64,000 nt of DNA from Pelagibacteraceae bacterium (GTDB lineage Bacteria; Pseudomonadota; Alphaproteobacteria; GCA-002720895). Below the pieces are notes generated by a model. It saw only the letters and a list, made by a program, of their open reading frames with translations, was not told the DNA's origin and did no database searches. The DNA is taken from contig PBCY01000018.1 in the NCBI GenBank assembly GCA_002717245.1, positions 1,135-65,134 of the forward strand. Reading direction: 5' to 3'. Every line of letters begins with the position of its first letter. Positions within the stretch are counted from its first letter, which is position 1. The position numbers and the translations under genes are program-made. This document shows, piece by piece, positions 351 through 42,825 of the stretch.

Positions 351-1186
351 TAAAAAATCTTTTTAACAAACTTTTTCAATTTTTTTACGCTACAAATAAA
401 AGTGAAGTAGTATTGCAATCTAAATTAAGACAAGAAATAAACTTTATAAAAAAGAGAGAATTTGAAAGAGATAATAAAAATTTAATTCCATTTGGTTATA
501 AAGTTTTTTCACAAACTGATGAAGATGGGATAATAAATGAAATCTTTAAAAGAATTGGCACAACTAATAAACAATTTTTAGAGTTTGGTGTAAATACTGA
601 TTTTAATAACACCACATATCTATTATTTAATGGTTGGAAAGGAGTATGGTTAGAGTCATCCAAAAAAAAAATTATAAAAATTGAAGAAAAGTATTCGTCT
701 TTTATTAAAAATAAAAAATTAAAGTTATTTAATAAAATTATTACTGCAGAGAATGTAAATGAAGAACTTAAATTTTCAAAACTCAATAAAAATTTAGATT
801 TATTATCTATAGATATAGATGGAAATGAATTATATGTTTTAAATGAACTAAGAATTATAAATCCTAGAGTTATTATTGTTGAATATAATGCTAAATTCCC
901 TCCACCAGTTGAAAAAACAATTAAGTACGATCCAAAATTTATTTGGGATTATGATGATTATTTTGGTTCTTCATTACAACTTTTAGAAAATACTTTGAAA
1001 AAAATAGGTTATGTATTAGTAGGGTGTAATGCGTTAGGAGTTAATGCATTTTTTATAAAAAAAGAATTGGTAAAAAATAAATTTCCAAAAAATTCTACCG
1101 CACAGTTTCATTATCAAGAATTTCGTATTGGGTTAAATAATATTAAATCTTCTCATATTAATAGCAATAAATGGTTGAATGAATGA
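347..1186 (+). CDS. FkbM-like methyltransferase-fold protein
   Basis: The segments FSQTDEDGIINEIF...FLEFGV and DLLSIDIDGNELYVL...IIVEYN parallel the FkbM-type ORF at 62041 (SQDLF...FVEFGA, IDYLSIDTEGSEYLIL...ITIEHN). Its start overlaps the upstream stop (ATGA). Confidence 0.45.
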   Translation: MIKNLFNKLFQFFYATNKSEVVLQSKLRQEINFIKKREFERDNKNLIPFGYKVFSQTDEDGIINEIFKRIGTTNKQFLEFGVNTDFNNTTYLLFNGWKGVWLESSKKKIIKIEEKYSSFIKNKKLKLFNKIITAENVNEELKFSKLNKNLDLLSIDIDGNELYVLNELRIINPRVIIVEYNAKFPPPVEKTIKYDPKFIWDYDDYFGSSLQLLENTLKKIGYVLVGCNALGVNAFFIKKELVKNKFPKNSTAQFHYQEFRIGLNNIKSSHINSNKWLNE

Positions 1187-2352
1187 GATTTTTAAAAGAA
1201 CTTATAAATAAAATTGATATTAAAAATATAATTTTTTTTAGTCTTTTAATAAGATTTTTATTTTTAATTTTTTTTGATTTACCAAATTTTGGAGATACTC
1301 AAACTCACAAACAAATTGGCGAAGAAATTTTTAGTGGCAACATAATATTTTCCTCTATCCACATGCCTGGTTATGGGATTTATATGCATATCTCAAATCT
1401 ATTAATGAAATCAAATTTTGGTGTTATCTTTTTTGATATAATATTATCTTGCTCTACCGTTTATATTATTTATCAAATCTCAAAAAAAATATTTAATGAT
1501 ATTAATATTGCTAAGATTTCAGCAATAATTTATTCAATATATCCTTTTTCAATTTTTTTTTCATTAAGTAGCTTAAATGAAAATTTATATATTTTTTTAT
1601 TATTTTCTTCAATTTGGTTTTTTTATAATAATAAATATTTATACGGAGTAATTTTCATAATTATAAGCATTTATGTTAAATCTATATCTTTTTTTATAGC
1701 TCCTATTTTAATTTTAAGTTTTTTATTTTTTTCAAAGAATTATTCTTCTAAAAACTTACTTAAATATATTTCAATTTATATTATTACTTTGTCTTTTTTA
1801 ATGACCCCTTGGTGGATTCATAATTTTAAGAAGTACGATACTTTTATACCGACCAATCTTTCTTATGGATATCATTTGTATTCAGGAAATAATGAAATGA
1901 ACAAAACAGGTGGAGGTATTGGTGGAAAAGATGTTAGTCATAAACTTATTTTAGATTCTCTTGAACATGATTATTTTAAAGCAGATAAAGTTTTTAAAGA
2001 ACATGCATATAATTACATAAAAAATAACCCGATGGAATTTGTGGGTATAACTTTTACAAAGTTACTAAGATTCTGGAGTTTTTATCCTGCAGATGAAAAG
2101 TATAGTAATTTTTTTTATAAATTTACTTCAATTTTTAGTTATGGTCCTATATTTTTTCTAAGTTTAATTTTTATATTCTTTTATTCGAGAAATTATATAA
2201 GAGAAATAATACCTTTAATTACAACATTATTTTTATTTACTGCTATATACAGTTTAACTATTGTTTCAATTAGATACAGATTCCCTATAGAACCTATATT
2301 AATTATCTTGTCTTCATATAGTTTAAAAAAAATATTATTTAGCTTGAAATAA
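1183..2352 (+). CDS. Polytopic GT-C fold glycosyltransferase (GT39/GT83, ArnT/PMT-like)
   Basis: 389 aa with many hydrophobic helices. An N-terminal loop precedes the helices, as in ArnT/PMT-type enzymes. It lies in a glycan-gene context. Confidence 0.55.
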   Translation: MRFLKELINKIDIKNIIFFSLLIRFLFLIFFDLPNFGDTQTHKQIGEEIFSGNIIFSSIHMPGYGIYMHISNLLMKSNFGVIFFDIILSCSTVYIIYQISKKIFNDINIAKISAIIYSIYPFSIFFSLSSLNENLYIFLLFSSIWFFYNNKYLYGVIFIIISIYVKSISFFIAPILILSFLFFSKNYSSKNLLKYISIYIITLSFLMTPWWIHNFKKYDTFIPTNLSYGYHLYSGNNEMNKTGGGIGGKDVSHKLILDSLEHDYFKADKVFKEHAYNYIKNNPMEFVGITFTKLLRFWSFYPADEKYSNFFYKFTSIFSYGPIFFLSLIFIFFYSRNYIREIIPLITTLFLFTAIYSLTIVSIRYRFPIEPILIILSSYSLKKILFSLK

Positions 2353-2379
2353 GTTATTTTTTATACTATTTTTTAGTTT

Positions 2380-2493
2380 GCCGGTGGTTATTGCGGGAGG
2401 CTCCCACCCGATCCCATTCCGAACTCGGTAGTGAAACTTCCCAGCGCCGATGGTACCTTATCTTAAGATACGGAAGAGTAGGTCGCTGCCGGT
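2380..2493 (+). rRNA. rrf: 5S ribosomal RNA
   Basis: The sequence gccggtggtt...cccacccgatcccattccgaactcggtagtgaaac...cagcgccgatggtac...agagtaggtcgctgccggt matches conserved alphaproteobacterial 5S blocks. The two ends pair as helix I. A T-run follows. Confidence 0.9.
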
Positions 2494-2550
2494 TTTTTTT
2501 TTAATACAAAACAATTCTTTTTTAATTTAAAATAGCTATACTTTAATTAC

Positions 2551-2627
<77 letters not shown>

Positions 2628-2706
2628 AATTAAATAATTTTAAATTTTTATTAATTTAATCATATAAAATCTTATATATTTAATAAGTAAAATTCTAAAA
2701 TTTTGT

Positions 2707-4437
2707 ATGTTTAGTAAAATTGGTCAAACTATAAAAGATTTATCTTTAACTAAAAATAAATCTTTCAATATTTCAGGAAAAGACCCTGGCTATCATGTTC
2801 ATGATGATATTTTTTATAAAATTAATAATGATAAAAAAGTTGAGTGGGTAATTAATAGAACTTGTGATCATGCAGGAGGAATGTTGATGTATAATCCTAA
2901 AGTTTTAGGAGATTGCATAGCAAAATGTCCAAATCATGGGTGGAAACTTGATTTAAAAAATCTGAGATATAAAAATGTTAATGTAAAAAAAAAAAAGATA
3001 AAATTTACACAAAAAAAAAATAAAGTTACTTATAAAAATGGTAAATTTTTTGTCGATTTACCAAAAAAAATAAAAAATACAAAACCAAAAGTAAAAATAC
3101 GTTTTTTAGCACATGCATGCATTTCTATTGATATTGATGGTTTTAAAATAGTTACTGATCCATGGTTAATAGGTCCTTGTTTCAATAATGGATGGTGGCA
3201 TAAATATCCACCTAAGTCAGATTCTTTTAAAATTTTAAAAGATGCAGATTTAATATATATATCTCATAATCACCCGGATCATTTACATCCAGAAACACTA
3301 AAATTTTTAAAAAATAAAAAAATGATTACCCCAAATTTTTCTTCTAAATCATCACAAAAAATGCTGAAAGCAATAGGTTGTAAAAACATAAATGCTTTAA
3401 ATTTTCAAGACGTATTTAAAATTAATTCAAAGAACATATTTTTTACTATATTTAAGTCAGGAGATTTTAGAGAAGACTCAGGGTTATTTATAAAATCAGG
3501 AGAATTTTCTGTTTTACTAGCTGTAGATTCAAAATTTCTAAATGGTGGGAATTTACCTAAAGAATCAACTGTTTTTTTAAGCTCTTTCGCAACCGGAGCC
3601 TCTGGGTTTCCGTTGTGTTTTTCAAATTATTCTAAAAATGAAAAAAAGAAAATTTTAAGAAACACAAGAATATCAAAAAGTATTGAAATAGAAATGATAT
3701 TAAAAAATTTGAACACAAAATTTTTTTTACCATACGCAGGATTTTTTGAAGAATCTTCAATAAGGGACAAATATATAAAGAATAATAATGCAAAAAATTC
3801 TATAGACGATATAAAAAAAAGACTAAATAAAAAGTATCCAAAAGTTAAAGTTCTTAATCCTATAGAATTTGATGAATATTTTTTTCAAGGAAATAAATTA
3901 ATCGAAAGAAAGAAAATTATTTATAGAAAACTTTATAAAGTTAATAAAAAATATATTTCTTCATACATAGATACAATCAAACAAAATTACAAAAATTTTA
4001 ATGAAAAAAAAGTAATTTCATATTTTAAGAAATCAAAGTTTAAAGATAAATTAAAACTTTTTTTAGAATTAACTGACGATAACTTTAAATCTAATAAAAA
4101 TGGTTATTTAGTAGATTTTACTTCAAATACGGTACAAGTCAAAAAGCTTAAAAGCTCAATGTTAAATAAATTGTTTAAAAATTTTAATTATGAAGAAAAA
4201 ATAAATTATTTAAATTTAAAGGTTAGAAAAGAGTCTTTTTTTATGACTGTTGATAATTTTTTACCATTTGAAGATTTGTTAATAGGATTTCAATGTAGAG
4301 TAAATAGAATTCCTAACTTATATAATAATAATTTTTGGCATTATTTTTCTAATGTTTATGTTGCACGAAAACATTTTAGATCTGAAAAAATTTGTTTTAG
4401 TTGTGATACTTTGAATCAAACTATTTTAAATTTATAA
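2707..4437 (+). CDS. CMP-N-acetylneuraminate hydroxylase (CMAH)-like protein: N-terminal Rieske [2Fe-2S] domain plus metallo-beta-lactamase-fold domain
   Basis: It carries the Rieske motif CDHAGGM...CPNHGW. Blocks along the whole length match my recollection of vertebrate CMAH: DPWLIGP, GWW, ADLIYISHNHPDH, GASGFP, PYAGFFEES..DKYIK, YLVDF, LIGFQ..FWHYF. At 576 aa it is close to the animal enzyme in size. Confidence 0.78.
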   Translation: MFSKIGQTIKDLSLTKNKSFNISGKDPGYHVHDDIFYKINNDKKVEWVINRTCDHAGGMLMYNPKVLGDCIAKCPNHGWKLDLKNLRYKNVNVKKKKIKFTQKKNKVTYKNGKFFVDLPKKIKNTKPKVKIRFLAHACISIDIDGFKIVTDPWLIGPCFNNGWWHKYPPKSDSFKILKDADLIYISHNHPDHLHPETLKFLKNKKMITPNFSSKSSQKMLKAIGCKNINALNFQDVFKINSKNIFFTIFKSGDFREDSGLFIKSGEFSVLLAVDSKFLNGGNLPKESTVFLSSFATGASGFPLCFSNYSKNEKKKILRNTRISKSIEIEMILKNLNTKFFLPYAGFFEESSIRDKYIKNNNAKNSIDDIKKRLNKKYPKVKVLNPIEFDEYFFQGNKLIERKKIIYRKLYKVNKKYISSYIDTIKQNYKNFNEKKVISYFKKSKFKDKLKLFLELTDDNFKSNKNGYLVDFTSNTVQVKKLKSSMLNKLFKNFNYEEKINYLNLKVRKESFFMTVDNFLPFEDLLIGFQCRVNRIPNLYNNNFWHYFSNVYVARKHFRSEKICFSCDTLNQTILNL

Positions 4438-5813
4438 TTTTTTATTTTTTTTTTAAAATTCTTTAATCCAAGAATTGTTATTATAAAAAGAAATGGTTCC
4501 ATAGGAATTCTATATCTAAAATTTCCAATACCTATTGTTGTTACTAAGAAGCTTAAACTAACTAGCGTTAAAAAAATTATTACCCAAATATTTTTTTTAT
4601 TATAAAAACTTATATGGAATATAGAGTACAATTGAAAAAATCTTAAAAAAAATAATGATATTTGAAATATAAACCAAATAACATGATATGCTTTTATTTC
4701 AAAATCTGTTTTTGAATAGGATTTATAAGAAAATTCGGAATACTTAACACCGTGTTTTTGTAGAATTGATATAACAGATGTATGAAATAAAGTTTTTATA
4801 TATGAACCAGTAACAGAAGTTATTATTTGTTCTTTTTCAATATCTTCATTCAAAAGTTTAATAAATAATTCTGTTTGTATATCAGATTCAATTATAGATT
4901 TTTTATGCTTGTTACCAGAAGACTCTATTTCAATTAAATCTTTATTTTTTTCAAAAGCTTCTTCTTGTAAATTTAAAGCTTTTTTAAGAGCTATTTTATT
5001 TCTTTCACCACAACCCCATTTATTAGATAAACATGGGTAAACATATTGCAAAAGATGCCCACCTTTTTGGTAGGTTAGATTTAGCTTATTTGTATTTAAA
5101 TAATTATAATAATAAATAGGGGAAGCTAATAAATAAATTATTATTAATGGAATAGTTGAAAATATTAAGCTTCTTAAAAAATTAGATTTATTTCTAAAAA
5201 AAAATATTAAAAAAACAAATAAAGATATAGAAGTAGGTAAAAATATAGCAGATGGTTTGGTTATATAAGACAATCCAAAGAAAAATGAACTAAAAATTAA
5301 ATATTTAATAAGGTTTTTTTTAATTAGAAAGACAAGCATAAAATAAATTCCTAAAGCAATAAATAAAACCATTAAAGTTTCTGGAAGAATTATTCCGGTT
5401 TGCCAAAAAATATTTGGATTAAGAGCAATTAAAAAGAAACTGATTAAAAAAAATTTTTTTGTAAACAGTTCAACAGTTTTTAATAAAACTACAGTTGTAA
5501 TTCCATGGATAAAACATTGGAATAATAAAATAGATAAATAGTTATTTTCTCCAAAGATTTTAAATAAAAAAGATATTAACAGAGGATAGGTAGGTAATCT
5601 GGCTGATAATGAATTAAAAAATTCTATAAACGATGCTTCATTGTTTAGTGTTAAAGCTGGTCTTATATAATCTAAACTTTCGTAGTTTTTGTCTAATATA
5701 TTAAAATTTATGTTTAAATATAGAGTTAATAAAGAAGATAAAGTAAAGCTTATTAGGAAAACGAAAAAAAATTTTTTTTTTTTTATTTTTTCTAAATTTA
5801 TAATTTTATTCAT
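4416..5813 (-). CDS. Polytopic GT-C fold glycosyltransferase (GT39/GT83, ArnT/PMT-like)
   Basis: 465 aa with about 10 or more TM helices. The ArnT-like N-terminal region reads RLPTYPLLISFLFKIFGENNY. The middle holds a soluble loop. The 3' end overlaps the convergent CMAH-like gene by 22 nt. Confidence 0.55.
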   Translation of the reverse strand: MNKIINLEKIKKKKFFFVFLISFTLSSLLTLYLNINFNILDKNYESLDYIRPALTLNNEASFIEFFNSLSARLPTYPLLISFLFKIFGENNYLSILLFQCFIHGITTVVLLKTVELFTKKFFLISFFLIALNPNIFWQTGIILPETLMVLFIALGIYFMLVFLIKKNLIKYLIFSSFFFGLSYITKPSAIFLPTSISLFVFLIFFFRNKSNFLRSLIFSTIPLIIIYLLASPIYYYNYLNTNKLNLTYQKGGHLLQYVYPCLSNKWGCGERNKIALKKALNLQEEAFEKNKDLIEIESSGNKHKKSIIESDIQTELFIKLLNEDIEKEQIITSVTGSYIKTLFHTSVISILQKHGVKYSEFSYKSYSKTDFEIKAYHVIWFIFQISLFFLRFFQLYSIFHISFYNKKNIWVIIFLTLVSLSFLVTTIGIGNFRYRIPMEPFLFIITILGLKNFKKKIKNYKFKIV

Positions 5814-8526: not shown

Positions 8527-8623
8527 TTAATTTAAAAGTACTTTATTTATTTAATTAATATTAAAAAATAATATAGTTATTTTTTTTATTTTTTTCTTGT
8601 ATTAAAAGCATTTATAGTTAAAT

Positions 8624-8661: not shown

Positions 8662-8670
8662 CATGTAATT

Positions 8671-9279: not shown

Positions 9280-9292
9280 AGAGGGGGATCAA

Positions 9293-9849: not shown

Positions 9850-10887
9850 ATGAAGGAAAAACTTATGAAATTTAATTTTTACAATTCAAATTTAAATTTA
9901 AATAATAAGTCAATTTTAGTAACTGGTGGTACTGGATCTTTTGGGAAAGCATTTACAAAAAAAATTCTTAATTTATATAAACCAAAAAGATTAATTATTT
10001 TTTCAAGGGACGAACATAAACAAAATGAAATGGCTAATGAACTAAAGAAATATTCTAATATTTTACGTTTCTTTATTGGAGATGTAAGAGACAGAGAAAG
10101 ATTGATAATGGCTACAAAAGGAGTAGATTTTATAATTCATGCCGCCGCTTTAAAACACGTTCCTTCAACTGAATATAATCCATTTGAATGTATAAGAACA
10201 AATATATTTGGAGCAGAAAATATTATCCATGCAGCTATCAATTCAAATGTAAAGAAAACAATTGCTTTATCTACTGATAAAGCAGCAAATCCAATTAATA
10301 TATATGGAGCTAGCAAATTAGCAGCTGATAAAATTTTTATTTCAGGAAATCATTTAGCAGCAAATGTAAAATCTAGGTTTTCTGTTGTTAGGTATGGAAA
10401 TGTAATTGGATCTAGGGGAAGTATTTATTGGATTATTAAAAATGTAATTGAAAAAAAATTAAAGAAAGTGCCAATAACTGATAAAAGAATGACTAGATTT
10501 TGGATAACTTTAGATCAAGGAGTAGAATTTGTTTTATCTTCGTTAGATTTAATGAGTGGGGGAGAAATTTATGTTCCTAAAATTCCAAGCATGAAAATTA
10601 CTGATTTTATAAATTCATTTTGTTCTGACAAAAAATTAGAGGAAATAGGTATTAGACCAGGTGAAAAACTACACGAAACAATGATAACAAAAGAAGATTC
10701 CAGATATACTTATGATTGTAAAGATAGATATGTTATAGAGCCAAATATTCATCAATGGGATAGCGAAAGATTAAAAAAAAATAAAATAAAAGGTAATAAG
10801 GTTCAAGAAAATTTTGAATATACTAGCAATTTAAATAAAACATGGTTAACAAGAAAAGATCTTTTATCTTTAGAGAAATTTTTTTAA
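9850..10887 (+). CDS. pseB: UDP-N-acetylglucosamine 4,6-dehydratase (inverting), PseB/FlaA1 type (CapD-like short form)
   Basis: Motifs ILVTGGTGSFGKAF, DVRD, YGASKLAADK. PseG- and PseI-like genes lie downstream. The true start may be ATG 9865, which is preceded by AAGGA. Confidence 0.75.
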   Translation: MKEKLMKFNFYNSNLNLNNKSILVTGGTGSFGKAFTKKILNLYKPKRLIIFSRDEHKQNEMANELKKYSNILRFFIGDVRDRERLIMATKGVDFIIHAAALKHVPSTEYNPFECIRTNIFGAENIIHAAINSNVKKTIALSTDKAANPINIYGASKLAADKIFISGNHLAANVKSRFSVVRYGNVIGSRGSIYWIIKNVIEKKLKKVPITDKRMTRFWITLDQGVEFVLSSLDLMSGGEIYVPKIPSMKITDFINSFCSDKKLEEIGIRPGEKLHETMITKEDSRYTYDCKDRYVIEPNIHQWDSERLKKNKIKGNKVQENFEYTSNLNKTWLTRKDLLSLEKFF

Positions 10888-10897
10888 AAAAAATTTA

Positions 10898-11779
10898 ATG
10901 AAAAAAAAATTAGTTCTAACTGGAGCAAGTGGGAAACTAGGAAGCACTTTAATAAATTTTCTTAATAAAGAATATAATTTATTTCCAATAGGAAATAAAA
11001 AAAAACCTAAGAATGGTTATAAATTAGATTTAACAAATAAGAATAAAGTAGAAAATTTTTTAAATAAAATTAAACCTGAAATCATTATTCATTTAGTAGC
11101 TATTACGAAAGTAGATTTTTGTGAGGAAAATTTTAATAAAGCACATGAAATAAATTTTTTAACTACAAAAAATTTAGTCGATTGGTCAGAAAAAAAGAAA
11201 ATAAGATTTATTTATTTATCAACTGATCAATTGTATGATAATTCTAATTTAAGTGATGAAAAAAGTGCGAATCCAAAAAATTTTTACGCTATAACAAAAT
11301 TTCTTTCTGAAGGAGTGGTATTATCTTTAAAAAACAGTTTAGTTGTTAGAACTAATTTTTATGGTTTTTTTCCTAAGCATAAAGACTCTTTAATAGATTG
11401 GTTTATTAATGAAATTAAAGAAAAAAGACAAGTAAGTCTTATAAAGGATATTTTTTTTAATCCGGTATATGTTAAACATTTATGTGATTATATTGTTAAG
11501 TTAATTAAAGCTAGAAAAGCTCATGGTATAGTAAATTTAGGAGCAAAAAATAGTATTTCAAAAGGTATGTTTTTATATAAAGTAGCAAAAGAATTAAATT
11601 TAAAAAAATTTAAGTCTAAATTTACTAATGTTAAAAATATTAAATTAAAAGCTTATCGTCCAAAAAATATGTCAATGTCTGTTAAAAAGATAGAAAATAT
11701 TTTTAATAAACCTATGCCTACTATAGAAGATGGTATTTTTTATTTAGTTAATGATTTAAAAAGTTGCAATGAATTTTGA
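10898..11779 (+). CDS. NAD(P)-dependent sugar-nucleotide reductase, RmlD-like
   Basis: It has LVLTGASGKLGSTL as a Rossmann motif and YAITK as the YxxxK catalytic motif. At 293 aa it is RmlD-sized. Confidence 0.6.
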   Translation: MKKKLVLTGASGKLGSTLINFLNKEYNLFPIGNKKKPKNGYKLDLTNKNKVENFLNKIKPEIIIHLVAITKVDFCEENFNKAHEINFLTTKNLVDWSEKKKIRFIYLSTDQLYDNSNLSDEKSANPKNFYAITKFLSEGVVLSLKNSLVVRTNFYGFFPKHKDSLIDWFINEIKEKRQVSLIKDIFFNPVYVKHLCDYIVKLIKARKAHGIVNLGAKNSISKGMFLYKVAKELNLKKFKSKFTNVKNIKLKAYRPKNMSMSVKKIENIFNKPMPTIEDGIFYLVNDLKSCNEF

Positions 11780-12479
11780 AAAAAAAGATAAAGTTTTAAT
11801 TGTTGCCGCACACCCAGATGATGATGTTTTAGGATGCGGCGGTACAATAGCATTTCTTAGAGAAAAAAAAATAAAAGTTAGAGTAGTTTTTTTAGCTGAA
11901 GGTATAAGTGCAAGATATTTACAAAAAGATATTGGTTCGTTTAAAGTGAAAAAGGAAATTGATTATAGAAACAAATGCGCTTTAAAAGCTTTAAAAATTC
12001 TAGGTGTTAATAAAGAAGAAATTTTTTTTAACAATTATCAATGTTTAAATTTAGATCAAATTTCTTTTTTAGACATAACAAAAACAATAGAAAAACAAGT
12101 TTATGATTTTATGCCAACAAATATATTTACTCACGCACAAAACGATGTAAACAATGATCATACTATAATTAACAAAGCAATGTTGGCGGCGACAAGACCT
12201 TTTGATAAAATTTTTTTAAAAAATATTTATTCCTTCGAAATATTATCTAGTTCAGAGTGGAATTATTTAAATGCATTTAATGCAAATTGTTTTTTTGATA
12301 TTTCTAAAACATTAAAAAAGAAAATATTAGCAATAAAAGCATATAAGAAAGAATTTAAAAAAAGTCCTCATCCAAGATCTATTGAGACTATTAAAGCTCT
12401 TGCAACTTTTAGAGGAAGTCAGTCAGGTCTCAAATACGCTGAGTCTTTTAATTTAATTAGATCAATAAAAAAAAATTAA
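11769..12479 (+). CDS. PIG-L/LmbE family N-acetyl-sugar deacetylase
   Basis: It carries the signature VAAHPDDDVLGCGGT and a downstream DVNNDH motif. Confidence 0.8.
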   Translation: MNFEKKDKVLIVAAHPDDDVLGCGGTIAFLREKKIKVRVVFLAEGISARYLQKDIGSFKVKKEIDYRNKCALKALKILGVNKEEIFFNNYQCLNLDQISFLDITKTIEKQVYDFMPTNIFTHAQNDVNNDHTIINKAMLAATRPFDKIFLKNIYSFEILSSSEWNYLNAFNANCFFDISKTLKKKILAIKAYKKEFKKSPHPRSIETIKALATFRGSQSGLKYAESFNLIRSIKKN

Positions 12480-12504
12480 AAATATCTAATAATAAGATAA
12501 AGAT

Positions 12505-14085
12505 TTGAAATATAGAATTATATTACAATCGAGAACAACATCTAAAAGATTACCCGGTAAATCCTTAATTTCTTTATGTAATACACCGTTAACAGTTTTA
12601 TGTGCAAAAAGGCTAAAAAATAAGAAAAATTTAATTATAGCAACATCAAATAATAAAAGTGACGACAAGCTTTGTAAAATTTTAGAAAAAAATAGAATTA
12701 AGTTTTTTAGAGGAAGTTTAAATAATGTGCTTTCTAGATTTTATTATTCATCATTAGACCTTAAAGATGAAGATATTATAATTAGGGCAACTGCGGATAA
12801 CCCAATACCTGATGCAAATTTAGTAAAGAAATGTTTAAAAATATTTAAAGAAAAAAAATATAAATATTTATATTTTGATTCACCAAAAAACGGATTAGCT
12901 TTTGGATTATGTATAGAGATTTTTTTTGTCAAAGAATTAAGAAAAGCTTATTATAATTCTAAATCATCATATGATAAAGAACATGTAGCAACGTGGATTA
13001 AAAGAAATATTAAAAATAAAAAAAATTTATCTTATTCAGATCTAAAAGTAAAAAAAACAAATAATTTAAAATGTTCAATCGACACATTCGATGATTATTT
13101 AAGAATGTTAAATTTATTTAAGTTTTATAAAAATGATTTTACTGAAGTTAGTTGGAAAAATTTATTAACCAAATTATTAGAATTAGATAAGTTATCAAAT
13201 TTAAGTAGGATTGGAATAGGAACTGCCAATTTTGGAATGAATTACGGTATTAAAAAAAAAAAAATTGATAGTCATAAAACAAATAAAATTTTAAGATTTG
13301 CTGAGAAAAAAGGAATAAATTTTATTGATACTGCTAGAATTTATGGAGAAGCGGAGACAAAAATAAAAAGTTTTAAATATAATATTTTTACTAAACTTGA
13401 CACCTTCGGTACAATAAATAATTATAGCTCCTTATCTAATAAAATAATTAAACAAAAAGTTTCTGAAAGCATTTCTAAATCATTAGAATGTTTAGGAAAA
13501 AAAAGTATCGAAGTTGTTTTTTTACATGACTGGAAACAATATAGTTTGAAAAAAAAGATTATGTGGAAGGAACTTATTAGATTAAAAAGAGGTGGTATAA
13601 TCAATAGTTTAGGGGCATCTGTTGATAATATTAAGGAGGCGACACAAGCATTAAATGAGAAAAATATTAAACATTTGCAAATTCCTTTTAATATTCTTGA
13701 CTATAGATGGCATAACATAAAATTCCGAAAGTTGTTAGATAATAGACCTGATGTAAAAATTTACGCAAGGAGTATTTTTTTACAAGGTCTTCTTTTATCT
13801 AAGAAAAATTTTTGGCCAAGTTGGGTAGATTCAAATAAAATATTAACAAATATAAATAATTTAAAAAAAAAATTTAATTTTAGATCAAATTTAGAATTAT
13901 GTTTAAGATATGCTTTATCTACAAATTGGATTTCACATATAATTCTAGGGATAGATAATAAAAAACAATTAGAAAATATCTTAAGTATTTCAAAAAAACC
14001 ACACATGTCTGAAGAAATGATTTATAAGATAAAAAAAACATTTGTTAATATTCCAGATAGATTAATAAAACCTTACGAATGGTAA
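12505..14085 (+). CDS. Fusion protein: SpsF/PseF-like cytidylyltransferase (N-terminal) plus aldo/keto reductase (C-terminal)
   Basis: The N-terminus reads IILQSRTTSKRLPGKSL...VLSRFY (CTP_transf_3 type). The C-terminus reads IGIGTANFGMNYG...FIDTARIYGEAE...LQIPFN (AKR type). It is one uninterrupted 526-aa ORF with a TTG start. Confidence 0.7.
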   Translation: MKYRIILQSRTTSKRLPGKSLISLCNTPLTVLCAKRLKNKKNLIIATSNNKSDDKLCKILEKNRIKFFRGSLNNVLSRFYYSSLDLKDEDIIIRATADNPIPDANLVKKCLKIFKEKKYKYLYFDSPKNGLAFGLCIEIFFVKELRKAYYNSKSSYDKEHVATWIKRNIKNKKNLSYSDLKVKKTNNLKCSIDTFDDYLRMLNLFKFYKNDFTEVSWKNLLTKLLELDKLSNLSRIGIGTANFGMNYGIKKKKIDSHKTNKILRFAEKKGINFIDTARIYGEAETKIKSFKYNIFTKLDTFGTINNYSSLSNKIIKQKVSESISKSLECLGKKSIEVVFLHDWKQYSLKKKIMWKELIRLKRGGIINSLGASVDNIKEATQALNEKNIKHLQIPFNILDYRWHNIKFRKLLDNRPDVKIYARSIFLQGLLLSKKNFWPSWVDSNKILTNINNLKKKFNFRSNLELCLRYALSTNWISHIILGIDNKKQLENILSISKKPHMSEEMIYKIKKTFVNIPDRLIKPYEW

Positions 14086-14876
14086 AAAATATTTTTTCAT
14101 TAAAAAATAAAGTTGTATTGGTTACAGGTGCAACTGGACATCTAGGATTAGAAATATCAAAAAGTATTTTAGATAGTGATGCGCATGTAATATTGACATC
14201 AAAAAATTTAAATAAGTTAAAAAAAGTAAAGAATAATTTTTTTAAGGATAATAAGAAAGTTGATATTTATAAAATGGATGTAACTAATAGCTCATCAATA
14301 AAAAATTGTATAAATTATGTAAAAAAAAAACATAAAGTTATAAATGGCTTAATTAATAACGCATATAGTGGTAAAGATGGATCAATAGAAAATATTGACG
14401 AAGAGGATTTTTTATTAGCTACGAAATATAATTTAATTGCTCCTTTTATATTAATTAAAAATATAATTAAAACTTTTCAAAATTTTAAAAAAAATAATAC
14501 TTTAAGTGTAATTAATATTGCTTCCATGTACGGAATAACTATCCCTAATTTTAGTGTATATGATGAAAATGTTTTAACTAATCCTGTACATTATGGCGCA
14601 ACTAAAGCTGGATTAATACATATGACTAAATATCTTGCAAGCTATTTAGCAAAAAAAAATATAAGGGTAAATTCAATATCTCCTGGAGCTTTTCCTAAAG
14701 AAAGTATTTTAAAAAAAAATAAAAATTTCAAAAGAAGGTTAATTAAAAACATCCCAATTGGAAGAGTGGGTAATCCAAAAGAAATAACTGGAGCAATAAT
14801 TTATTTACTTTCTGATTCATCAAGTTACGTAACAGGAGCAAATTTTAGCATTGATGGTGGCTGGACTTCTAAATAA
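14079..14876 (+). CDS. Short-chain dehydrogenase/reductase (SDR)
   Basis: Motifs VLVTGATGHLG, NNAY, YGATKAG, PGAF, GANFSIDGGW. Confidence 0.85.
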   Translation: MVKNIFSLKNKVVLVTGATGHLGLEISKSILDSDAHVILTSKNLNKLKKVKNNFFKDNKKVDIYKMDVTNSSSIKNCINYVKKKHKVINGLINNAYSGKDGSIENIDEEDFLLATKYNLIAPFILIKNIIKTFQNFKKNNTLSVINIASMYGITIPNFSVYDENVLTNPVHYGATKAGLIHMTKYLASYLAKKNIRVNSISPGAFPKESILKKNKNFKRRLIKNIPIGRVGNPKEITGAIIYLLSDSSSYVTGANFSIDGGWTSK

Positions 14877-15885
14877 AAATGTTTTTTTTAGATGTGATGG
14901 CGGGTCTGATTTAGGACTTGGTCATATCACTAGATCTATCGAATTAGCATTAGGTTTTAAAAAATTAGGTTTAAAAAAAATTATTTTTTTTGTTTTTTCA
15001 GATAATCATAATGTTTTTAAAAGAATAAAAAAAAATGGTTTTAAGTTTTATAAATGTCCATTTTCATTAGGAACAAAAAAAGATTTACTTTTTATGAAAA
15101 AATTTTCTAATTTAGAAGATAATAATAACTCTATATTGATTTGCGATACCTTTTGCCTAAAAGATTATTACTTAAAAGAATATTCAAAATACTTTTTTCT
15201 AGTTTTAATAAATGAGTTAAAGAAGAATAAAAGCTATTCAAATATATTAATTGGTACTTCTGAAAAAAATAATAAATCAATTATCCCTTTGTATGGAAAA
15301 AAGACTAATTTGATTAGAAAGGAATTTATAAATAGTAACAATAAAAAAGTAAATAATAATCAAAGCAAAATTCTTATCACTATGGGAGCAGGGGATCCTG
15401 ATAATGTTACTTCTTGGTTTTTAAGTAACTTTGTTAATGAGTTAAAAAATGAAGAAATTTATGTTTTGTTAGGGGGAGCATATAAATATAAAAAACAAAT
15501 ATATAAAAAATTTTCAAAATTATATAAAAATATTAAAATATTTTATGATTTAGAAAAACCTTCAAATGTAATGAAGAAATCTTATTTTGCTATTAGTTCT
15601 TCTGGAAATATGTCTTTAGAATTAGCTGCTTTAGGAATACCACAGCTTTTAGTTTCACTTGATAAGACGCAAAGAATTATAACTAAATTTTTGGTTAAAA
15701 AAAAATGTGCTTTAAATTTAGGTTTTTACAAAAATTTAAAAAAAAGAAAAGTTGGTTCTTTAATAAAAGATTTTATTAATAAAAAATCTTTTAGAAATAA
15801 ATATAAAATAAACAATCCAAATATATTTCATTCTGAGGGAAGTTTAAATATAGCAAAGTTAATAATTAAGAAATTTGATGAATAA
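14851..15885 (+). CDS. pseG: PseG-like UDP-2,4-diacetamido-2,4,6-trideoxy-hexose hydrolase (GT28-related)
   Basis: The N-terminal FRCDGGSDLGLGHITRSIELA is typical of PseG. It has a GT-B-like C-terminus and sits immediately upstream of the PseI-like gene. Confidence 0.65.
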   Translation: MMVAGLLNKNVFFRCDGGSDLGLGHITRSIELALGFKKLGLKKIIFFVFSDNHNVFKRIKKNGFKFYKCPFSLGTKKDLLFMKKFSNLEDNNNSILICDTFCLKDYYLKEYSKYFFLVLINELKKNKSYSNILIGTSEKNNKSIIPLYGKKTNLIRKEFINSNNKKVNNNQSKILITMGAGDPDNVTSWFLSNFVNELKNEEIYVLLGGAYKYKKQIYKKFSKLYKNIKIFYDLEKPSNVMKKSYFAISSSGNMSLELAALGIPQLLVSLDKTQRIITKFLVKKKCALNLGFYKNLKKRKVGSLIKDFINKKSFRNKYKINNPNIFHSEGSLNIAKLIIKKFDE

Positions 15886-16932
15886 ATTTATAAAAATAGG
15901 AAAAAAAAAATAGGAGCGGGATACCCATGTTTTATAATTGCTGAAGCAAGCATAAATCATAACGGTAGGGTTTCTTTAGCAAAAAAAATGGCTAATGAGG
16001 CTAAAAAAGCTGGCGCTGATTGTATTAAATTTCAAACTTTTACTGCTAGTGAATTTTGTGCAGATAAAAAACAAAAAATTGAACTTTATTCAAATGGAAA
16101 GAAAAAGATTTGGAATTTATATAATTTGTATAAAAAACATGAATTTTCAGTTTCTCAATGGAAAGAAATTAAAAAATATTGCGATAAAATTGGAATTATA
16201 TTTATGTCAACAGTTCAAGATCCTATAAATTTTAAATTATTAAAGAAAATTGGCATAAAGGCTATAAAAGTTGGATCAGATGATTTTGATAATATAAGTA
16301 ATTTAAAATATTATGCTAAAACTAAACTCCCCATGATTATTTCAAGAGGCATGTCAGATATAAAAGAAATTAAAAATATAATTGATAAAATATATAAAAT
16401 AAATAAAAAACTGGCAGTTTTACACTGTGTTTCTATATATCCAAGCTCTTCTAGTGAATTAAATTTAAAACAAATCTTAAGTTTACAAAAGGTTTTTCCA
16501 AAAGTAATTTGGGGATATTCAGATCATTCACTAGGAACATTAGCTCCAGCGATAGCTGTAACCCTTGGATCAAAAATAATAGAAAAACATTTTACATTAG
16601 ATAATAAATTATTAGGCCCTGATCATTCCTTTTCTGTCAATCCAAAGCAATTAAAAGAATTAGTTGATAATATAAGGTTTACAGAAAATTCATTAGGTAC
16701 TGAAAAAATATTTAATTCAAAAAAAGAAATAAAAAATAAAAATTTTATGAGAAGAAGGATTGTAGCAAAAAAAGACTTATCTTCTGGAACTAAAATAAAT
16801 AATTTAAATATAAGTTTTAAAAGATCTAGTTCAGGTTTATTTATAAATCAATTAAATAAAATTAAAGGTAAAACATTAAAAGTTGCAAAAAAAAAAGATG
16901 CTTCAATATTAATAAGGGATATTAAAATATGA
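15878..16932 (+). CDS. pseI: NeuB/PseI-family nonulosonic acid synthase, interrupted by a frameshift in an A10 tract
   Basis: ATG 15878 overlaps the pseG stop and gives MNKFIKIGKKK*. The next frame continues IGAGYPCFIIAEASINHNG...KFQTF...SDHS plus a C-terminal SAF domain. The frames meet at the A10 run 15901-15910. Confidence 0.75.
15901..15910 (+). repeat. A10 homopolymer at the frameshift site of the pseI-like gene
   Basis: Counted directly. A length of 11 (or 8) would fuse the two frames. Confidence 0.9.
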
Positions 16933-31278: not shown

Positions 31279-32253
31279 ATGAAAGTTATATATAAAAATC
31301 CAAAAAGAATTAGAGATATAATAGTTTATAAACCCGACGTTTTTTTAGACAATAGAGGTTTTTTTTATGAAACTTTTCAAAAAAAGAAATTGGTTCATTT
31401 GGGAATAAATGAAGATTTTGTTCAAGATAATAGATCATATTCAAAAAAAGGCGTATTAAGAGGAATACATTTTTTAGAAGGGAAACAACAAGCCCAATTA
31501 CTTTCTGTGGTAGAAGGAAAAATATTAGATGTAATTGTAGATTTAAGGAAAAATTCAAAAACTTTTAAAAAATGGTTTTCTATAGAGTTATCAGACAAAA
31601 ATCATTATCATTTATATATTCCTCGAGGTTTTGGACATGGTTTTTATGTATTAAGTGATAAAGCGAAAATTAATTATAAAACAACTGAATATTTTAATAA
31701 AAAAAATGAAAAAGGCATTATATGGAATGACAAAGATCTAAATATAAAATGGCCTGTTAAAAATCCCATTCTTAGTTTAAGAGATAAGAAATTTTCTAAT
31801 TTAAAAACCGTTTTTAAGAATTTAAATAATGAAAAAAATAAATCTTTTAAAAAAAAAAATAAACCTTTTTTAATCAACGTTCCTTTTTTTCCAGGTAAAA
31901 AAGCATCACTTTATTATTTTGAACCAAAAATTTTTAAAATGAAAAGTATAAAAAGAATTTTTTATATTAATGGAAACAAAAATGTTAAAAGAGGTTCACA
32001 TGCTCATAAAAAATGCAATCAAGTACTTATTTGTCAAAAAGGTAAAGTTAGAGTTAACTGCACTTATTCTAATAAAGATAAAAAATCTTTTTTATTAAAA
32101 AGCTGCAAAACCGCGCTGTTTATAAATAAAATGACTTGGACTGATATTGAATATTTAGAAAATGAAACAATTATTAGCGTGATATGCGATAGAAAATACG
32201 AAGTCCATGATTATATTCATGATTATGAAAAATTTATTGAAAGTTTTAAGTAA
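31279..32253 (+). CDS. Fusion: dTDP-4-dehydrorhamnose 3,5-epimerase (RmlC) domain plus FdtA/WxcM-like sugar 3,4-ketoisomerase cupin domain
   Basis: The N-terminus reads FLDNRGFFYETF, RGIHF, DVIVDLRKNS, RGFGHGF (RmlC). The C-terminus reads RIFYINGNKNVKRGSHAHKKCNQVLICQKG...YEVHDYIHDY (FdtA-like). Confidence 0.75.
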   Translation: MKVIYKNPKRIRDIIVYKPDVFLDNRGFFYETFQKKKLVHLGINEDFVQDNRSYSKKGVLRGIHFLEGKQQAQLLSVVEGKILDVIVDLRKNSKTFKKWFSIELSDKNHYHLYIPRGFGHGFYVLSDKAKINYKTTEYFNKKNEKGIIWNDKDLNIKWPVKNPILSLRDKKFSNLKTVFKNLNNEKNKSFKKKNKPFLINVPFFPGKKASLYYFEPKIFKMKSIKRIFYINGNKNVKRGSHAHKKCNQVLICQKGKVRVNCTYSNKDKKSFLLKSCKTALFINKMTWTDIEYLENETIISVICDRKYEVHDYIHDYEKFIESFK

Positions 32254-33004
32254 TAAATTGAATAAAAAAAAAGAAATTTTAGCAATTATCCCTGCAAGGT
32301 CTGGTAGTAAAGGAATAAAAAATAAAAATATAAAATTATTGAACGGGCATCCATTGTTATCGTATGCCATCGCTGCAGGATTAAATTCTAAATTAGTAAG
32401 TAGAGTTATTTGTAGCACTGATGCAAAAAAAATTGCGGTTATTGCAAAGAAATATGGAGCTGAAGTTCCTTTTTTAAGGCCAAAAAATATTGCAAAAGAT
32501 TTATCAACAGATTTTGAGGTTTTTTTTCATGCATTAAAATTTTTAAAGAAAAAATTTAATTATAATCCTGATTATGTAGTGAATTTAAGGCCAACCTCAC
32601 CAATAAGAAAAAAAAATACTTTAGATGTAGCAATAGATAAGTTCATAAATTCTAATAAATATGATTCTATAAGATCCGTTTGTTTAAATGAAAAAACTCC
32701 TTATAAAATGTGGTTTATTAAGAATAATAATTTATCTCCTATTATAAATTCTAAAAAAATTAAAGAGGCTTTTAATTTACCAAGACAACTTTTACCTAAT
32801 ACTTATTGGCAAACAGCAGAAATTGATATAACTAAAACATCAACTATTTTGAAAAAAAAAAGTATGACAGGAAAAAAGATTTTACCATTTGTTCTTAATA
32901 ATAAAATTTCTATAGATATTGATAGTCATAAAGATTTTAAGCATGCCGCCAAAATTTTGAAAACAAATAAAAAATTTATAAAACCAAATTTAAATAATAT
33001 TTAA
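32207..33004 (+). CDS. neuA: Acylneuraminate cytidylyltransferase (CMP-nonulosonate synthetase)
   Basis: Motifs AIIPARSGSKGIKNKNI, NLRPTSPIR, PRQ. A more likely start is TTG 32258 or ATG 32225, because the track start overlaps the upstream gene. Confidence 0.85.
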   Translation: MIIFMIMKNLLKVLSNKLNKKKEILAIIPARSGSKGIKNKNIKLLNGHPLLSYAIAAGLNSKLVSRVICSTDAKKIAVIAKKYGAEVPFLRPKNIAKDLSTDFEVFFHALKFLKKKFNYNPDYVVNLRPTSPIRKKNTLDVAIDKFINSNKYDSIRSVCLNEKTPYKMWFIKNNNLSPIINSKKIKEAFNLPRQLLPNTYWQTAEIDITKTSTILKKKSMTGKKILPFVLNNKISIDIDSHKDFKHAAKILKTNKKFIKPNLNNI

Positions 33005-33005
33005 T

Positions 33006-33989
33006 ATGGAAATAATTGCTGAAATAGGTTCTGTGCATAATGGCTCTCTAAAATTAGCATTTAGACTAATTGATACAGCGAAAGATTGTGGAGCAACAAC
33101 TGTAAAGTTTCAAACTCATATTGCTGAGGCAGAAACTTTAAAGGATGCGCCTTCTCCAAAGTATTTTAGTAAAGAAAAAAGATATAATTATTTTAAAAGA
33201 ACAAGTTTTAATATAAATCAGTGGAAAAAATTAAAAGATTATTCAGAAAAAAGAAAAATTAAGTTTTTGTCTTCACCTTTTTCTTTAGAGGCAGTAGATT
33301 TGTTAGAAAAAATAAATATAAGAGGTTATAAAATTCCATCTGGGGAAATTACAAATATACCTTTAATTGAAAAAATTAATAAAATTAATAAACCTACTTT
33401 TATATCTTCAGGAATGTCAAACTGGAAAGAGTTAGATTTAGCAATAAAAAAATTAAAAAATGTTAAAAAATTAACAATAATGCAATGCACTTCATTATAC
33501 CCGTGTCCCGCAAATAAAGTTGGCTTAAATATAATTAATAAAATGAGAAGCAGATATAAAAGGCCTATAGGGTTTTCAGATCATACTATTGGTATAACAG
33601 CATCTATACTTTCTATATTTTATAACGTTAGTTCAATTGAAAAACATTTAACATTATCAAGAAAAATGTATGGAAGTGATGCATTTAATGCTTTAGAGCC
33701 TAATGAATTTAAGCTCATGGTTGACTCTATTAAAGAAACTAAAATTATTTTAGATAATAAAGTTAATAAAAATGATTTAAAAGAACTAAAAGGTATGAAA
33801 AGAATATTTGAAAAAAGTATTGTTATTAAAAATAAATTAAAAAAAGGTGAAATAATAAGATTTGATGATATAACTTTTAAAAAACCAGGTAATGGTATTA
33901 GTCCAAAAAATTATAAAGAAGTAATTGGAAAAAAAACAAAAAAGAATTTAAATATCGAACACATTTTAAAAAAAGGGGATTATTATTAA
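33006..33989 (+). CDS. neuB: N-acetylneuraminate (nonulosonate) synthase
   Basis: Motifs IIAEIGSVHNGS, VKFQTH, KIPSGE, FSDHT, plus a C-terminal SAF domain. Confidence 0.9.
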   Translation: MEIIAEIGSVHNGSLKLAFRLIDTAKDCGATTVKFQTHIAEAETLKDAPSPKYFSKEKRYNYFKRTSFNINQWKKLKDYSEKRKIKFLSSPFSLEAVDLLEKINIRGYKIPSGEITNIPLIEKINKINKPTFISSGMSNWKELDLAIKKLKNVKKLTIMQCTSLYPCPANKVGLNIINKMRSRYKRPIGFSDHTIGITASILSIFYNVSSIEKHLTLSRKMYGSDAFNALEPNEFKLMVDSIKETKIILDNKVNKNDLKELKGMKRIFEKSIVIKNKLKKGEIIRFDDITFKKPGNGISPKNYKEVIGKKTKKNLNIEHILKKGDYY

Positions 33990-33990
33990 A

Positions 33991-35142
33991 ATGAGAAAAA
34001 TTTGTGCAGTAGTATCTTCAAGGGCAAACTATAGTAGTATAAAATCTGTTTTAAGAAGTGTATCACAAAATAAAAATCTTATTTTACAAATAGTAGTAGG
34101 AGCCTCTGCTTTGATAGATAGGTTTGGATCAGCTGTTGATTTGATTAAGAAGGATGGTTTTAAAATTAATAATAGAGTGCATATGCTTATTGAAGGAGAG
34201 ACAGTTGAAACAATGGCTAAATCAACCGGTATGGGTTTATTGGAATTTCCTACGGTTTTTAGGCATTTAAAACCAGACATTGTTTTAATTGTAGGTGATA
34301 GATTTGAAAATATGGCAGCATCTATTGCAGCTAGTTATATGAATATTCCAATAGCACACACAATGGGAGGAGAAGTTTCAGGTACAATTGATGAAAGTAT
34401 AAGACATGCAATTACAAAATTTTCTCATATTCATTTTCCAGCTAGTAAGAGTGCAAAAGAGAGAATAATAAAATTAGGGGAAAGAAAAGAAAATGTTTTT
34501 TTAGTTGGTTGCCCTAGAATTGATTTAGCAAAGAAAGTATTAAGTGATAAAAAATCTATTTTAAATGAAAAGTTTTTAAATGCTGGAGTTGGAGATAAAA
34601 TTAACTTCTCAAAACCATTTATAATTGTTTCACAACATTCAGTTACTACTGAATATAATGATACAAGACATCAAATTGAGTCGACTATGAAAGCAGTTAA
34701 TAAAATAAATATTCAAAAAATAATTCTTTGGCCAAATCCAGACGCAGGTTCAGATGAAATTTCTAGAGTATTTAGAAAATTTAGAGAAAAAAATTTAATA
34801 AGTAATGTAAGATTTTATAAAAATTTTCCACCAGAGGTTTATATGAAATTAATGTCAAAAACTAGTTGTTTGGTTGGTAATTCTTCTAGTGGTATAAGAG
34901 AAGGGGCCTACATAGGAACACCTGTAGTTAATATTGGTACCAGACAATCTAATAGAGATCGAGGAAAAAACACATTAGATTGTAGTTACAATGAAAATGA
35001 CATATTTAAATCAGTTAATAAACAAATCAAAAAGAATAAGTATAAAAAAGAATATTTATATGGTGATGGAAGTTCTGGTAAAAAAATTGCTAAAATTTTA
35101 GAAAAAGTAAAAGTTAAAATACAAAAACAAATTTCATATTAG
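33991..35142 (+). CDS. neuC: UDP-N-acetylglucosamine 2-epimerase (hydrolysing)
   Basis: GDRFENMAASIAASYMNIPIAHTMGGEVSGTIDESIRHAITKFSHIHF is the NeuC-type signature. Confidence 0.9.
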   Translation: MRKICAVVSSRANYSSIKSVLRSVSQNKNLILQIVVGASALIDRFGSAVDLIKKDGFKINNRVHMLIEGETVETMAKSTGMGLLEFPTVFRHLKPDIVLIVGDRFENMAASIAASYMNIPIAHTMGGEVSGTIDESIRHAITKFSHIHFPASKSAKERIIKLGERKENVFLVGCPRIDLAKKVLSDKKSILNEKFLNAGVGDKINFSKPFIIVSQHSVTTEYNDTRHQIESTMKAVNKINIQKIILWPNPDAGSDEISRVFRKFREKNLISNVRFYKNFPPEVYMKLMSKTSCLVGNSSSGIREGAYIGTPVVNIGTRQSNRDRGKNTLDCSYNENDIFKSVNKQIKKNKYKKEYLYGDGSSGKKIAKILEKVKVKIQKQISY

Positions 35143-42816: not shown

Positions 42817-42825
42817 AATCTAATA

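Follow-up and report, generated by a model that had tools for sequence, protein, structure and literature searches.

A full-length CMAH homologue in a SAR11 glycosylation island as a candidate CMP-nonulosonate N-acetyl hydroxylase

A 64,000-nucleotide stretch of contig PBCY01000018.1 from a Pelagibacteraceae bacterium (assembly GCA_002717245.1), referred to here in its whole length as the window, carries an intact open reading frame (ORF) with an ATG start (2707..4437, plus strand) that encodes a 576-amino-acid member of the CMAH (CMP-N-acetylneuraminic acid hydroxylase) family. The protein is made up of a Rieske domain, a metallo-beta-lactamase (MBL)-fold catalytic domain and a CMAH-specific C-terminal domain. 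Judging from its sequence, we consider it fairly likely to be a CMP-nonulosonate N-acetyl hydroxylase, and the SAR11 bacterium that carries it probably makes an N-glycolyl sialic-acid-like sugar. The proposal is built on the intact gene, on full-length homology that includes the metal ligands, on the fold, on the association of the family with NeuB, NeuC and NeuA genes, and on the presence of all the precursor genes in the surrounding island; the identity of substrate and product, the source of the electrons and the display of the sugar on the cell surface are inferred.

Vertebrate CMAHs were pulled from the database with a mouse sequence as mere bait, and the comparisons used the database entries. 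By BLASTP the window protein aligned with gar CMAH (P0197) over residues 37-549 of 576 against residues 35-558 (29% identity, E 1e-63), and with dingo CMAH (P0124) over residues 53-548 against 56-561 (29% identity, E 1e-57); overall, identity with vertebrate CMAHs amounted to 27-29% over ∼520 residues, in proteins of about the same length. This similarity is far above chance and is not confined to the generic motifs, since it extends through the Rieske and MBL domains and the ∼230-amino-acid C-terminal domain, so that the claim of a full-length CMAH homologue made in an earlier sequence-only reading of this DNA stands. The blocks listed in that reading (DPWLIGP, GWW, ADLIYISH, GASGFP, PYAGFF..DKYIK, YLVDF and IGFQ..FWHYF) are all present and align with the database vertebrate CMAHs. 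With a profile of 130 sequences a vertebrate representative scored 527 bits, and bacterial and vertebrate representatives both exceeded 500 bits; other solved families matched the MBL core only, at no more than 58 bits. Profile and tree alike assign the protein to the same family as vertebrate CMAH, whereas the MBL-fold hydroxylases CmlA and FrsH, the nearest of the unrelated families, match its MBL core only. The window protein thus resembles animal CMAH (EC 1.14.18.2) in its length, its three collinear domains, the Rieske CxH...CxxH and HxHxDH motifs and the C-terminal blocks, as well as in belonging to a family that co-occurs with CMP-sialic-acid synthesis genes. It differs in being bacterial, in falling in a clade apart from the one that groups with vertebrates, in having no cytochrome b5 or b5 reductase visible in the window and in carrying an extra C-terminal CxxC tail; its substrate may moreover be of the legionaminic rather than the neuraminic type.

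Conserved residues were read from an alignment of 19 sequences ranging from SAR11 to mammals and from a second one of 130 sequences (117 bacterial and 13 vertebrate). Both metal motifs noted in the sequence-only reading are present. In the Rieske [2Fe-2S] motif C53-D-H55...C74-P-N-H77 (2863..2937, plus strand) the four ligands are invariant throughout the 130 bacterial and vertebrate sequences; the corresponding Pfam Rieske match (residues 46-88) scored 16.4 bits and so stayed below the cutoff of 20.3. An NCBIfam search of the protein returned nothing specific. The catalytic domain occupies about residues 128-345 (3088..3741, plus strand), as indicated by Foldseek and by a Pfam Lactamase_B_3 match to residues 130-239 (E 1e-10), and includes the metal-binding motif H187-N-H189-P-D191-H192 (3265..3282, plus strand), which aligns with HMHSDH in vertebrates. 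The remaining domain, about residues 346-558 (3742..4380, plus strand), is found in CMAH-family proteins only, and its PYAGFFxE, DKYIK, YLVDF and IGFQ..FWHYF blocks are collinear with those of vertebrate CMAH. Positions invariant in the 19-sequence alignment comprise, in the N-terminal and MBL parts, C53, H55, C74, H77, D151-P-W, G162-W-W, S186-H-x-H-x-D-H192, D257, D274 and N279, and in the C-terminal part P342-x-A-G-x-F-x-E349, D354, K363-N364, R507 and F547. Most of them remain invariant among the 130 sequences, with W164, H187, N279, E349, K363 and N364 at 90% or more. C53, H55, C74, H77, H189, D191, H192, D257 and D274 are invariant in the larger set, H187 and E349 nearly so, and D354, F460, F471, R507 and F547 are invariant in both alignments. 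H187, H189, D191, H192, D253/D257 and D274 are candidate iron ligands.

An AlphaFold2 model computed from the 130-sequence alignment reached a pLDDT of 92.2 and a pTM of 0.89, the last 18 residues alone being disordered. Foldseek comparison of the model with the Protein Data Bank (PDB) gave MBL-fold matches at probability 1.0, the best being FrsH (8a90) and CmlA (4jo0, 5kik, 5kil); NAPE-PLD and various MBL hydrolases came next. The PDB contains no CMAH structure; a sequence search returned at best weak MBL-core matches to FrsH and CmlA, and the family profile retrieved these two proteins at 8e-15 and 8e-10, respectively. When CmlA is aligned with this profile, the invariant D274 pairs with the Asp of its 'AADS' segment, the bridging ligand D403, and the CmlA Glu altered in the E377D mutant entry (5kil) falls beside the conserved G-D-F-R-x-D segment (D253, D257). 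Going by fold and alignment, the catalytic domain looks like an O2-activating His/carboxylate iron site, possibly a dinuclear one, a stoichiometry that we infer. The MBL-fold diiron beta-hydroxylases CmlA and FrsH are the closest solved structures to this domain, with which they have in common the HxHxDH motif, a downstream Asp and, presumably, O2 activation. However, they align at ∼15% identity with the MBL core only (residues 128-280 of the window protein), have neither a Rieske nor a CMAH C-terminal domain, and act on carrier-protein-tethered amino acids. The window protein was not assigned to the CmlA/FrsH group, which is defined by an N-terminal carrier-protein-interaction domain, an MBL diiron domain and the lack of a Rieske domain, since it has both a Rieske domain and a C-terminal domain of the CMAH type. 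Classical Rieske non-heme iron oxygenases, exemplified by the naphthalene dioxygenase alpha subunit, also possess an N-terminal Rieske cluster that feeds a non-heme iron and need an external reductase, but they use a Ring_hydroxyl_A catalytic fold and a mononuclear iron held by two His and one carboxylate; no Ring_hydroxyl_A-type catalytic domain was matched by Pfam in the window protein.

Regarding the electron-transfer partner, six-frame translation of the window revealed neither a cytochrome b5 motif (HPGG) nor a ferredoxin cysteine motif, and Pfam scans of window ORFs of at least 120 amino acids revealed no b5, FNR or other reductase domain, in agreement with the sequence-only reading, which had seen no b5 or b5 reductase there. 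The supply of b5 and b5 reductase is a property of the host system and not of the protein family. A C563-x-x-C566 motif lies near the C-terminus (4393..4404, plus strand), in the stretch where the model is disordered (pLDDT <50), and belongs to bacterial members only, being present in 75 of the 117 bacterial homologues and in none of the 13 vertebrate CMAHs. This tail might serve for docking or metal binding in place of the interaction with b5.

The genes for a possible substrate are found in the same island. As stated in the sequence-only reading, the window contains a neuA/neuB/neuC group and two further NeuB-type synthases, the NeuB-family ORFs starting at 15988 (NeuB#1), 33006 (NeuB#2) and 41329 (NeuB#3) and NeuC at 33991. 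The group in question, Set B (32207..35142, plus strand; assigned by profile scores), consists of a NeuA-like cytidylyltransferase (32207-33004), NeuB#2 (33006-33989) and NeuC (33991-35142). NeuC scored 405.6 bits on the equivalog TIGR03568 (cutoff 235.9) and NeuB#2 343.5 bits on NeuB_NnaB, and the best solved relative of the cytidylyltransferase is the CMP-Neu5Ac (CMP-N-acetylneuraminic acid) synthetase 1eyr. A PDB sequence search asking whether NeuB#2 is of the NeuB, LegI or PseI type gave near-equal scores for PseI (8h2c) and NmNeuB (1xuu). Set B is the most likely source of the CMP-nonulosonate substrate.

Neighbourhoods of the family elsewhere point in the same direction. A pattern scan of GTDB species representatives yielded 80 homologue loci, whose hosts include Pelagibacterales, other Alphaproteobacteria and Gammaproteobacteria, along with Bacteroidota, Helicobacter, Prochlorococcus, Marinimicrobia, Myxococcota, Bdellovibrio, Nitrospira and Nitrospinaceae. 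Linkage was counted by phmmer, with the window's own NeuB, cytidylyltransferase and NeuC as queries and clades defined at 60% identity. Of 82 loci, 24 had all three genes within 10 kb of the homologue, which corresponds to 14 of 47 clades; where both flanks extended for 8 kb or more, the proportion was 19 of 48 loci. SAR11 links are undercounted by the 10-kb criterion: the window gene is 11.5 kb from its nearest NeuB and 28 kb from Set B. Unbiased clustering of the neighbours of the 82 loci likewise put NeuC, cytidylyltransferase and NeuB on top, followed by a GDP-mannose-dehydratase-like dehydratase, an ABC ATPase, a CBS-nucleotidyltransferase, a short-chain dehydrogenase/reductase (SDR), methyltransferases, a GFO/IDH oxidoreductase and GT2 glycosyltransferases; of these, the dehydratase, the CBS-nucleotidyltransferase, the SDR, the methyltransferases and the GFO/IDH oxidoreductase are accessories of nonulosonate pathways. 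The NeuBs linked to homologues were in 23 of 25 cases most like the NeuC-dependent NeuB#2, and not like the pseudaminic acid (Pse)-type NeuB#1 or the cupin-fused NeuB#3. Linked arrangements include a divergent cytidylyltransferase-NeuB-NeuC operon ∼300 bp from the homologue in a Pelagibacter metagenome-assembled genome (MAG; L002), and a same-strand legionaminic-type operon in Reichenbachiella carrageenanivorans (L005), where the homologue stands after dehydratase, DegT, PglD, NeuB and NeuC genes and before those for a nucleotidyltransferase and a cytidylyltransferase. In a Chitinophagaceae genome (L091) the homologue is flanked by NeuB and NeuC, in a gammaproteobacterial clade (L090) it follows NeuB, NeuC and cytidylyltransferase, and in Myxococcota (L078) it adjoins a cytidylyltransferase; the Bdellovibrio locus (L079) is also nonulosonate-linked.

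One such locus is viral. In the giant-virus MAG IMGVR_UViG_GVMAG-M-3300020185-35_000001 (L092:5824-11289, 24% GC), the CMAH homologue (7842-9617) sits between NeuC and a NeuB-cytidylyltransferase fusion. It is 39-40% identical to vertebrate CMAH over its full length (E 1e-130 to 1e-148), far closer than any bacterial sequence examined. Going by its gene content, this locus looks like a compact pathway to CMP-Neu5Gc, the CMP form of N-glycolylneuraminic acid, and it may bear on the proposed transfer of CMAH from microbes to deuterostomes. In seven clades (16 loci; for instance L035:9171-9998, L008:8790-9581 and L090:7094-7876) a class I S-adenosylmethionine-dependent methyltransferase is encoded just 5' of the CMAH homologue, which hints at O-methylation of the new glycolyl hydroxyl; no such gene stands beside the window gene.

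The family is neither tiny nor large: 567 matches were obtained among 90%-identity clusters, and a search of 1.84 billion representatives gave 414 clusters at 50% identity with E<=1e-30. Phylogenetic relationships were approached with a neighbour-joining tree of 48 sequences (Kimura distances, 100 bootstraps, midpoint root). Vertebrate CMAH grouped, with 100% bootstrap, with Myxococcota, Nitrospira, Nitrospinaceae, Bdellovibrio and one Enterobacterales MAG. The closest sequences to the window protein were P0002 and P0003 (100%) and P0004 (91%). SAR11 sequences fell in at least two separate clades, a scatter that fits repeated exchange within the hypervariable island. Loci with nonulosonate linkage are found to either side of the midpoint root, an argument for linkage as an ancestral trait of the family. 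As this is a neighbour-joining tree without NamH or algal sequences, its deep branching is provisional.

In the mechanism that we propose, the CMAH-family protein would be a soluble two-centre iron monooxygenase. Electrons from NAD(P)H would reach its N-terminal Rieske [2Fe-2S] cluster through a putative carrier, namely a housekeeping reductase, ferredoxin or flavodoxin, and would pass from the cluster to the His/Asp-ligated non-heme iron of the MBL domain, which may be a diiron centre as in CmlA and FrsH. There O2 would be activated and the N-acetyl methyl group of a CMP-activated nonulosonic acid hydroxylated to N-glycolyl; the likeliest substrate would be the Neu5Ac- or legionaminic-type product of the island NeuC-NeuB-NeuA set, and the N-glycolyl sugar would then be moved onto a SAR11 surface glycan. 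The chemistry is suggested by analogy, since each of the only two relatives that have been characterised, animal CMAH and mycobacterial NamH, turns N-acetyl into N-glycolyl on nucleotide-activated sugars (PMC6481270, PMC10050696); a nonulosonate is suggested as the class of substrate because the homologue neighbourhoods hold NeuB, NeuC and NeuA genes. NamH, the Mycobacterium UDP-N-acetylmuramic acid (UDP-MurNAc) hydroxylase, is described as a distant CMAH homologue with a Rieske and a beta-lactamase-superfamily domain that performs the same N-acetyl to N-glycolyl conversion (PMC6481270, PMC10050696). Compared by description only, it differs in its UDP-MurNAc substrate and its peptidoglycan context, against the alphaproteobacterial surface polysaccharide setting of the window protein. 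Ten mid-scoring family representatives were either unnamed metagenome proteins or labelled CMP-N-acetylneuraminate monooxygenase, and none was labelled NamH. N-glycolyl groups are considered very rare in nature, Neu5Gc and N-glycolylmuramic acid being the only known cases (PMC6481270). For Tannerella forsythia UB4 there is a report of a mass that fits N-glycolyl legionaminic acid, with no enzyme assigned (PMC5378307); N-glycolyl nonulosonates are therefore chemically plausible in bacteria.

Several observations weigh against this function. According to a 2019 review no known microbe makes Neu5Gc (PMC6481270), and the literature searched contained no characterised bacterial CMAH; it also contained nothing relevant on SAR11 nonulosonates. 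In the window the gene is monocistronic, with a convergent neighbour, and lies outside any nonulosonate operon. The closest nonulosonate gene is 5.4 kb off, the nearest NeuB 11.5 kb and the NeuA-NeuB-NeuC set 27.8 kb, so that in the window the CMAH-family gene is tied to sugar genes at the level of the island only. No NeuB, cytidylyltransferase or NeuC was found within 10 kb in 53 of the 82 loci, among them those of Chitinophaga filiformis, Parasphingorhabdus, Helicobacter and Prochlorococcus, and the neighbour clustering over the same 82 loci revealed no conserved ferredoxin or reductase. Furthermore, the window protein falls in another, larger bacterial clade than the one that groups with vertebrates and is only 27-29% identical to vertebrate CMAH, and its substrate may therefore differ.

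A difference of this kind would mean that the same Rieske and MBL oxygenase chemistry is directed to another nucleotide sugar or position, for example to a UDP-N-acetyl-hexosamine or to the C9 methyl or another N-acyl chain of the 9-deoxy nonulosonate of the Pse-like gene set. That the architecture accepts UDP-MurNAc is shown by NamH (PMC6481270, PMC10050696), and the sugar genes that lie nearest to the window gene encode two GT-C enzymes and the PseB set, the NeuC set being farther off. The low identity with a characterised enzyme, and the lack of nearby nonulosonate genes at over half of the homologue loci, also speak for it. We nonetheless judge this alternative rather unlikely, as the links that do occur are overwhelmingly to genes for NeuC-dependent NeuB and CMP-cytidylyltransferase and extend over Alpha- and Gammaproteobacteria, Bacteroidota, Myxococcota, Bdellovibrio and a giant virus, and as the full C-terminal domain, likely to recognise the substrate, is conserved with animal CMAH. 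Hydroxylation of a CMP-nonulosonate thus remains the function that we favour.

A further point against an active hydroxylase comes from the nearest species representative, the Pelagibacterales MAG SAT136 (L010, 76% identity), whose orthologue (L010:3564-5295) is frameshifted in a poly-A run (KKKK) after about residue 363, either through an assembly error or because it is a pseudogene. Together with the protein P0003, which is without part of the C-terminal domain, and with the rapid turnover of SAR11 islands (PMC2217521), this could be taken to indicate a decaying or non-functional island passenger, or a hydrolytic MBL enzyme with a vestigial Rieske domain. We hold this to be highly improbable: the window ORF is intact and keeps every invariant ligand and motif, relatives at 70% identity retain the full 576-amino-acid length, the model is confident except for the last 18 residues, and a frameshift in a homopolymer of a MAG fits an assembly error. 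The data are better described by a functional CMAH-type oxygenase.

The sequence-only reading had presented CMAH as a deuterostome enzyme with sporadic microbial homologues. Microbial homologues do exist, but the novelty is less than was implied, since prokaryotic members have been reported (Simakov 2015, PMC4729200; Peri 2018, 60 prokaryotes, PMC5767959) and automatically annotated, IMG naming many homologues 'CMP-N-acetylneuraminate monooxygenase' (KEGG K08080). The catalogued bacterial and algal homologues of these two studies and of KEGG K08080/IMG belong to the same family as the window protein, which is 36-47% identical to many of them; in the literature searched, however, they are reported as BLAST hits only, without SAR11 context, neighbourhood analysis or function. 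Relative to that literature, the location in a SAR11 hypervariable island and the quantified, operon-level association with NeuB, NeuC and NeuA across phyla are new, as are the diiron-hydroxylase-like catalytic fold, the CxxC tail restricted to bacteria and the giant-virus cluster.

SAR11 is the most abundant bacterial lineage of the ocean. We advance tentatively, as quite possible though short of probable, the wider proposal that SAR11, many other bacteria of the sea and of soils, and one giant virus or more make N-glycolyl nonulosonic acids (Neu5Gc or N-glycolyl legionaminic acid) de novo by means of a b5-independent CMAH. The occurrence of homologues in nonulosonate operons and in a SAR11 island makes the statement that microbes do not produce Neu5Gc testable in culturable marine bacteria. 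If the proposal is true, the view that no microbe synthesises Neu5Gc would be overturned, the origin of the animal Neu5Gc pathway would be placed among marine microbes and viruses, and the proposed microbe-to-deuterostome transfer of CMAH would be informed. The surface diversity of SAR11, which is believed to drive escape from phages and grazers, would gain a further chemical dimension, and a soluble, b5-independent enzyme would become available for the chemoenzymatic synthesis of Neu5Gc or N-glycolyl legionaminic acid. Should the substrate be another one, the family would represent a second bacterial specificity for this oxygenase architecture.

The gene lies at the edge of the island, where, as the sequence-only reading had it, it follows a 5S rRNA gene (2380..2494, plus strand; Rfam RF00001, 85.4 bits) and a tRNA-Met (CAT) gene (2551..2627, plus strand; ARAGORN and Rfam), the latter 80 nt upstream of the ORF. 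On the 5' side of the 5S rRNA a GT-C (PMT_2) membrane glycosyltransferase is encoded (1183..2352, plus strand; Pfam PMT_2, E 4e-7), an arrangement that recurs in L004 and L010. A convergent gene for another such enzyme (4416..5813, minus strand; Pfam PMT_2, E 2e-12) overlaps the 3' end of the CMAH-family gene by 22 nt. Among the homologue loci, the flanking genes for GT-C (PMT_2), a membrane protein, a glucose/sorbosone dehydrogenase (GSDH) and NusG are common only to the nearest relative L010, NusG appearing also in one Chitinophagaceae locus. A promoter and terminator scan of positions 2300-4700 gave counts no higher than in shuffled controls.

From about 0 to 58 kb the window has a GC content of 20-26%, against 32% at GroEL, and according to Pfam scans this low-GC region is packed with glycosylation genes. 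It matches, by description and not by synteny, the published account of SAR11 hypervariable region 2 (HVR2), a low-GC cell-surface island bounded by 5S and 23S rRNA genes (PMC2217521; 10.64898/2026.04.03.716430). The 5S rRNA gene is isolated, having protein genes upstream of it, and the window contains no 23S rRNA; this is consistent with the split rRNA operon described for SAR11. Besides Set B, a Pse-like Set A (9850..16932, plus strand; Pfam/NCBIfam) encodes PseB (9850; 490 bits, above cutoff), an RmlD-like protein, a PIG-L deacetylase, a cytidylyltransferase-aldo/keto reductase fusion, an SDR, a PseG-like protein (14851; 127.6 bits) and NeuB#1 (15988; 272 bits). Set C (41329..45376, plus strand; Pfam NeuB and Cupin_2, CTP_transf_3), of nonulosonate or ulosonate type, comprises the NeuB#3-cupin fusion (41329), a methyltransferase, an unknown ORF and a cytidylyltransferase (44705). 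In total the window has four CTP_transf_3 cytidylyltransferases plus KdsB (51259). Two of these products are unusual fusions, the cytidylyltransferase-aldo/keto reductase (12505-14085) and the NeuB-type synthase-cupin (41329-42816).

After NeuB#1 follow genes for a methyltransferase and, at 17558-20737, for an ATP-grasp ligase, an ornithine/diaminopimelate-type pyridoxal phosphate-dependent decarboxylase and a PhyH-family dioxygenase, and downstream of the NeuC set lies a radical SAM/SPASM enzyme (37851-38969); the ATP-grasp, decarboxylase, PhyH and radical SAM enzymes probably serve further N-acyl or backbone tailoring of nonulosonates. A carbamoyltransferase is split into two ORFs (25014-25427, 137 amino acids, N-terminal; 25534-26703, 389 amino acids), which could reflect a frameshift, a pseudogene or a sequencing error. 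FkbM-type methyltransferases are encoded five times, at 347, 49214, 60940 and 62041 and once more past GroEL, and two paralogous GSDH-like beta-propeller proteins are encoded in the island, at 7180-8526 on the minus strand and at 39936-41336 on the plus strand.

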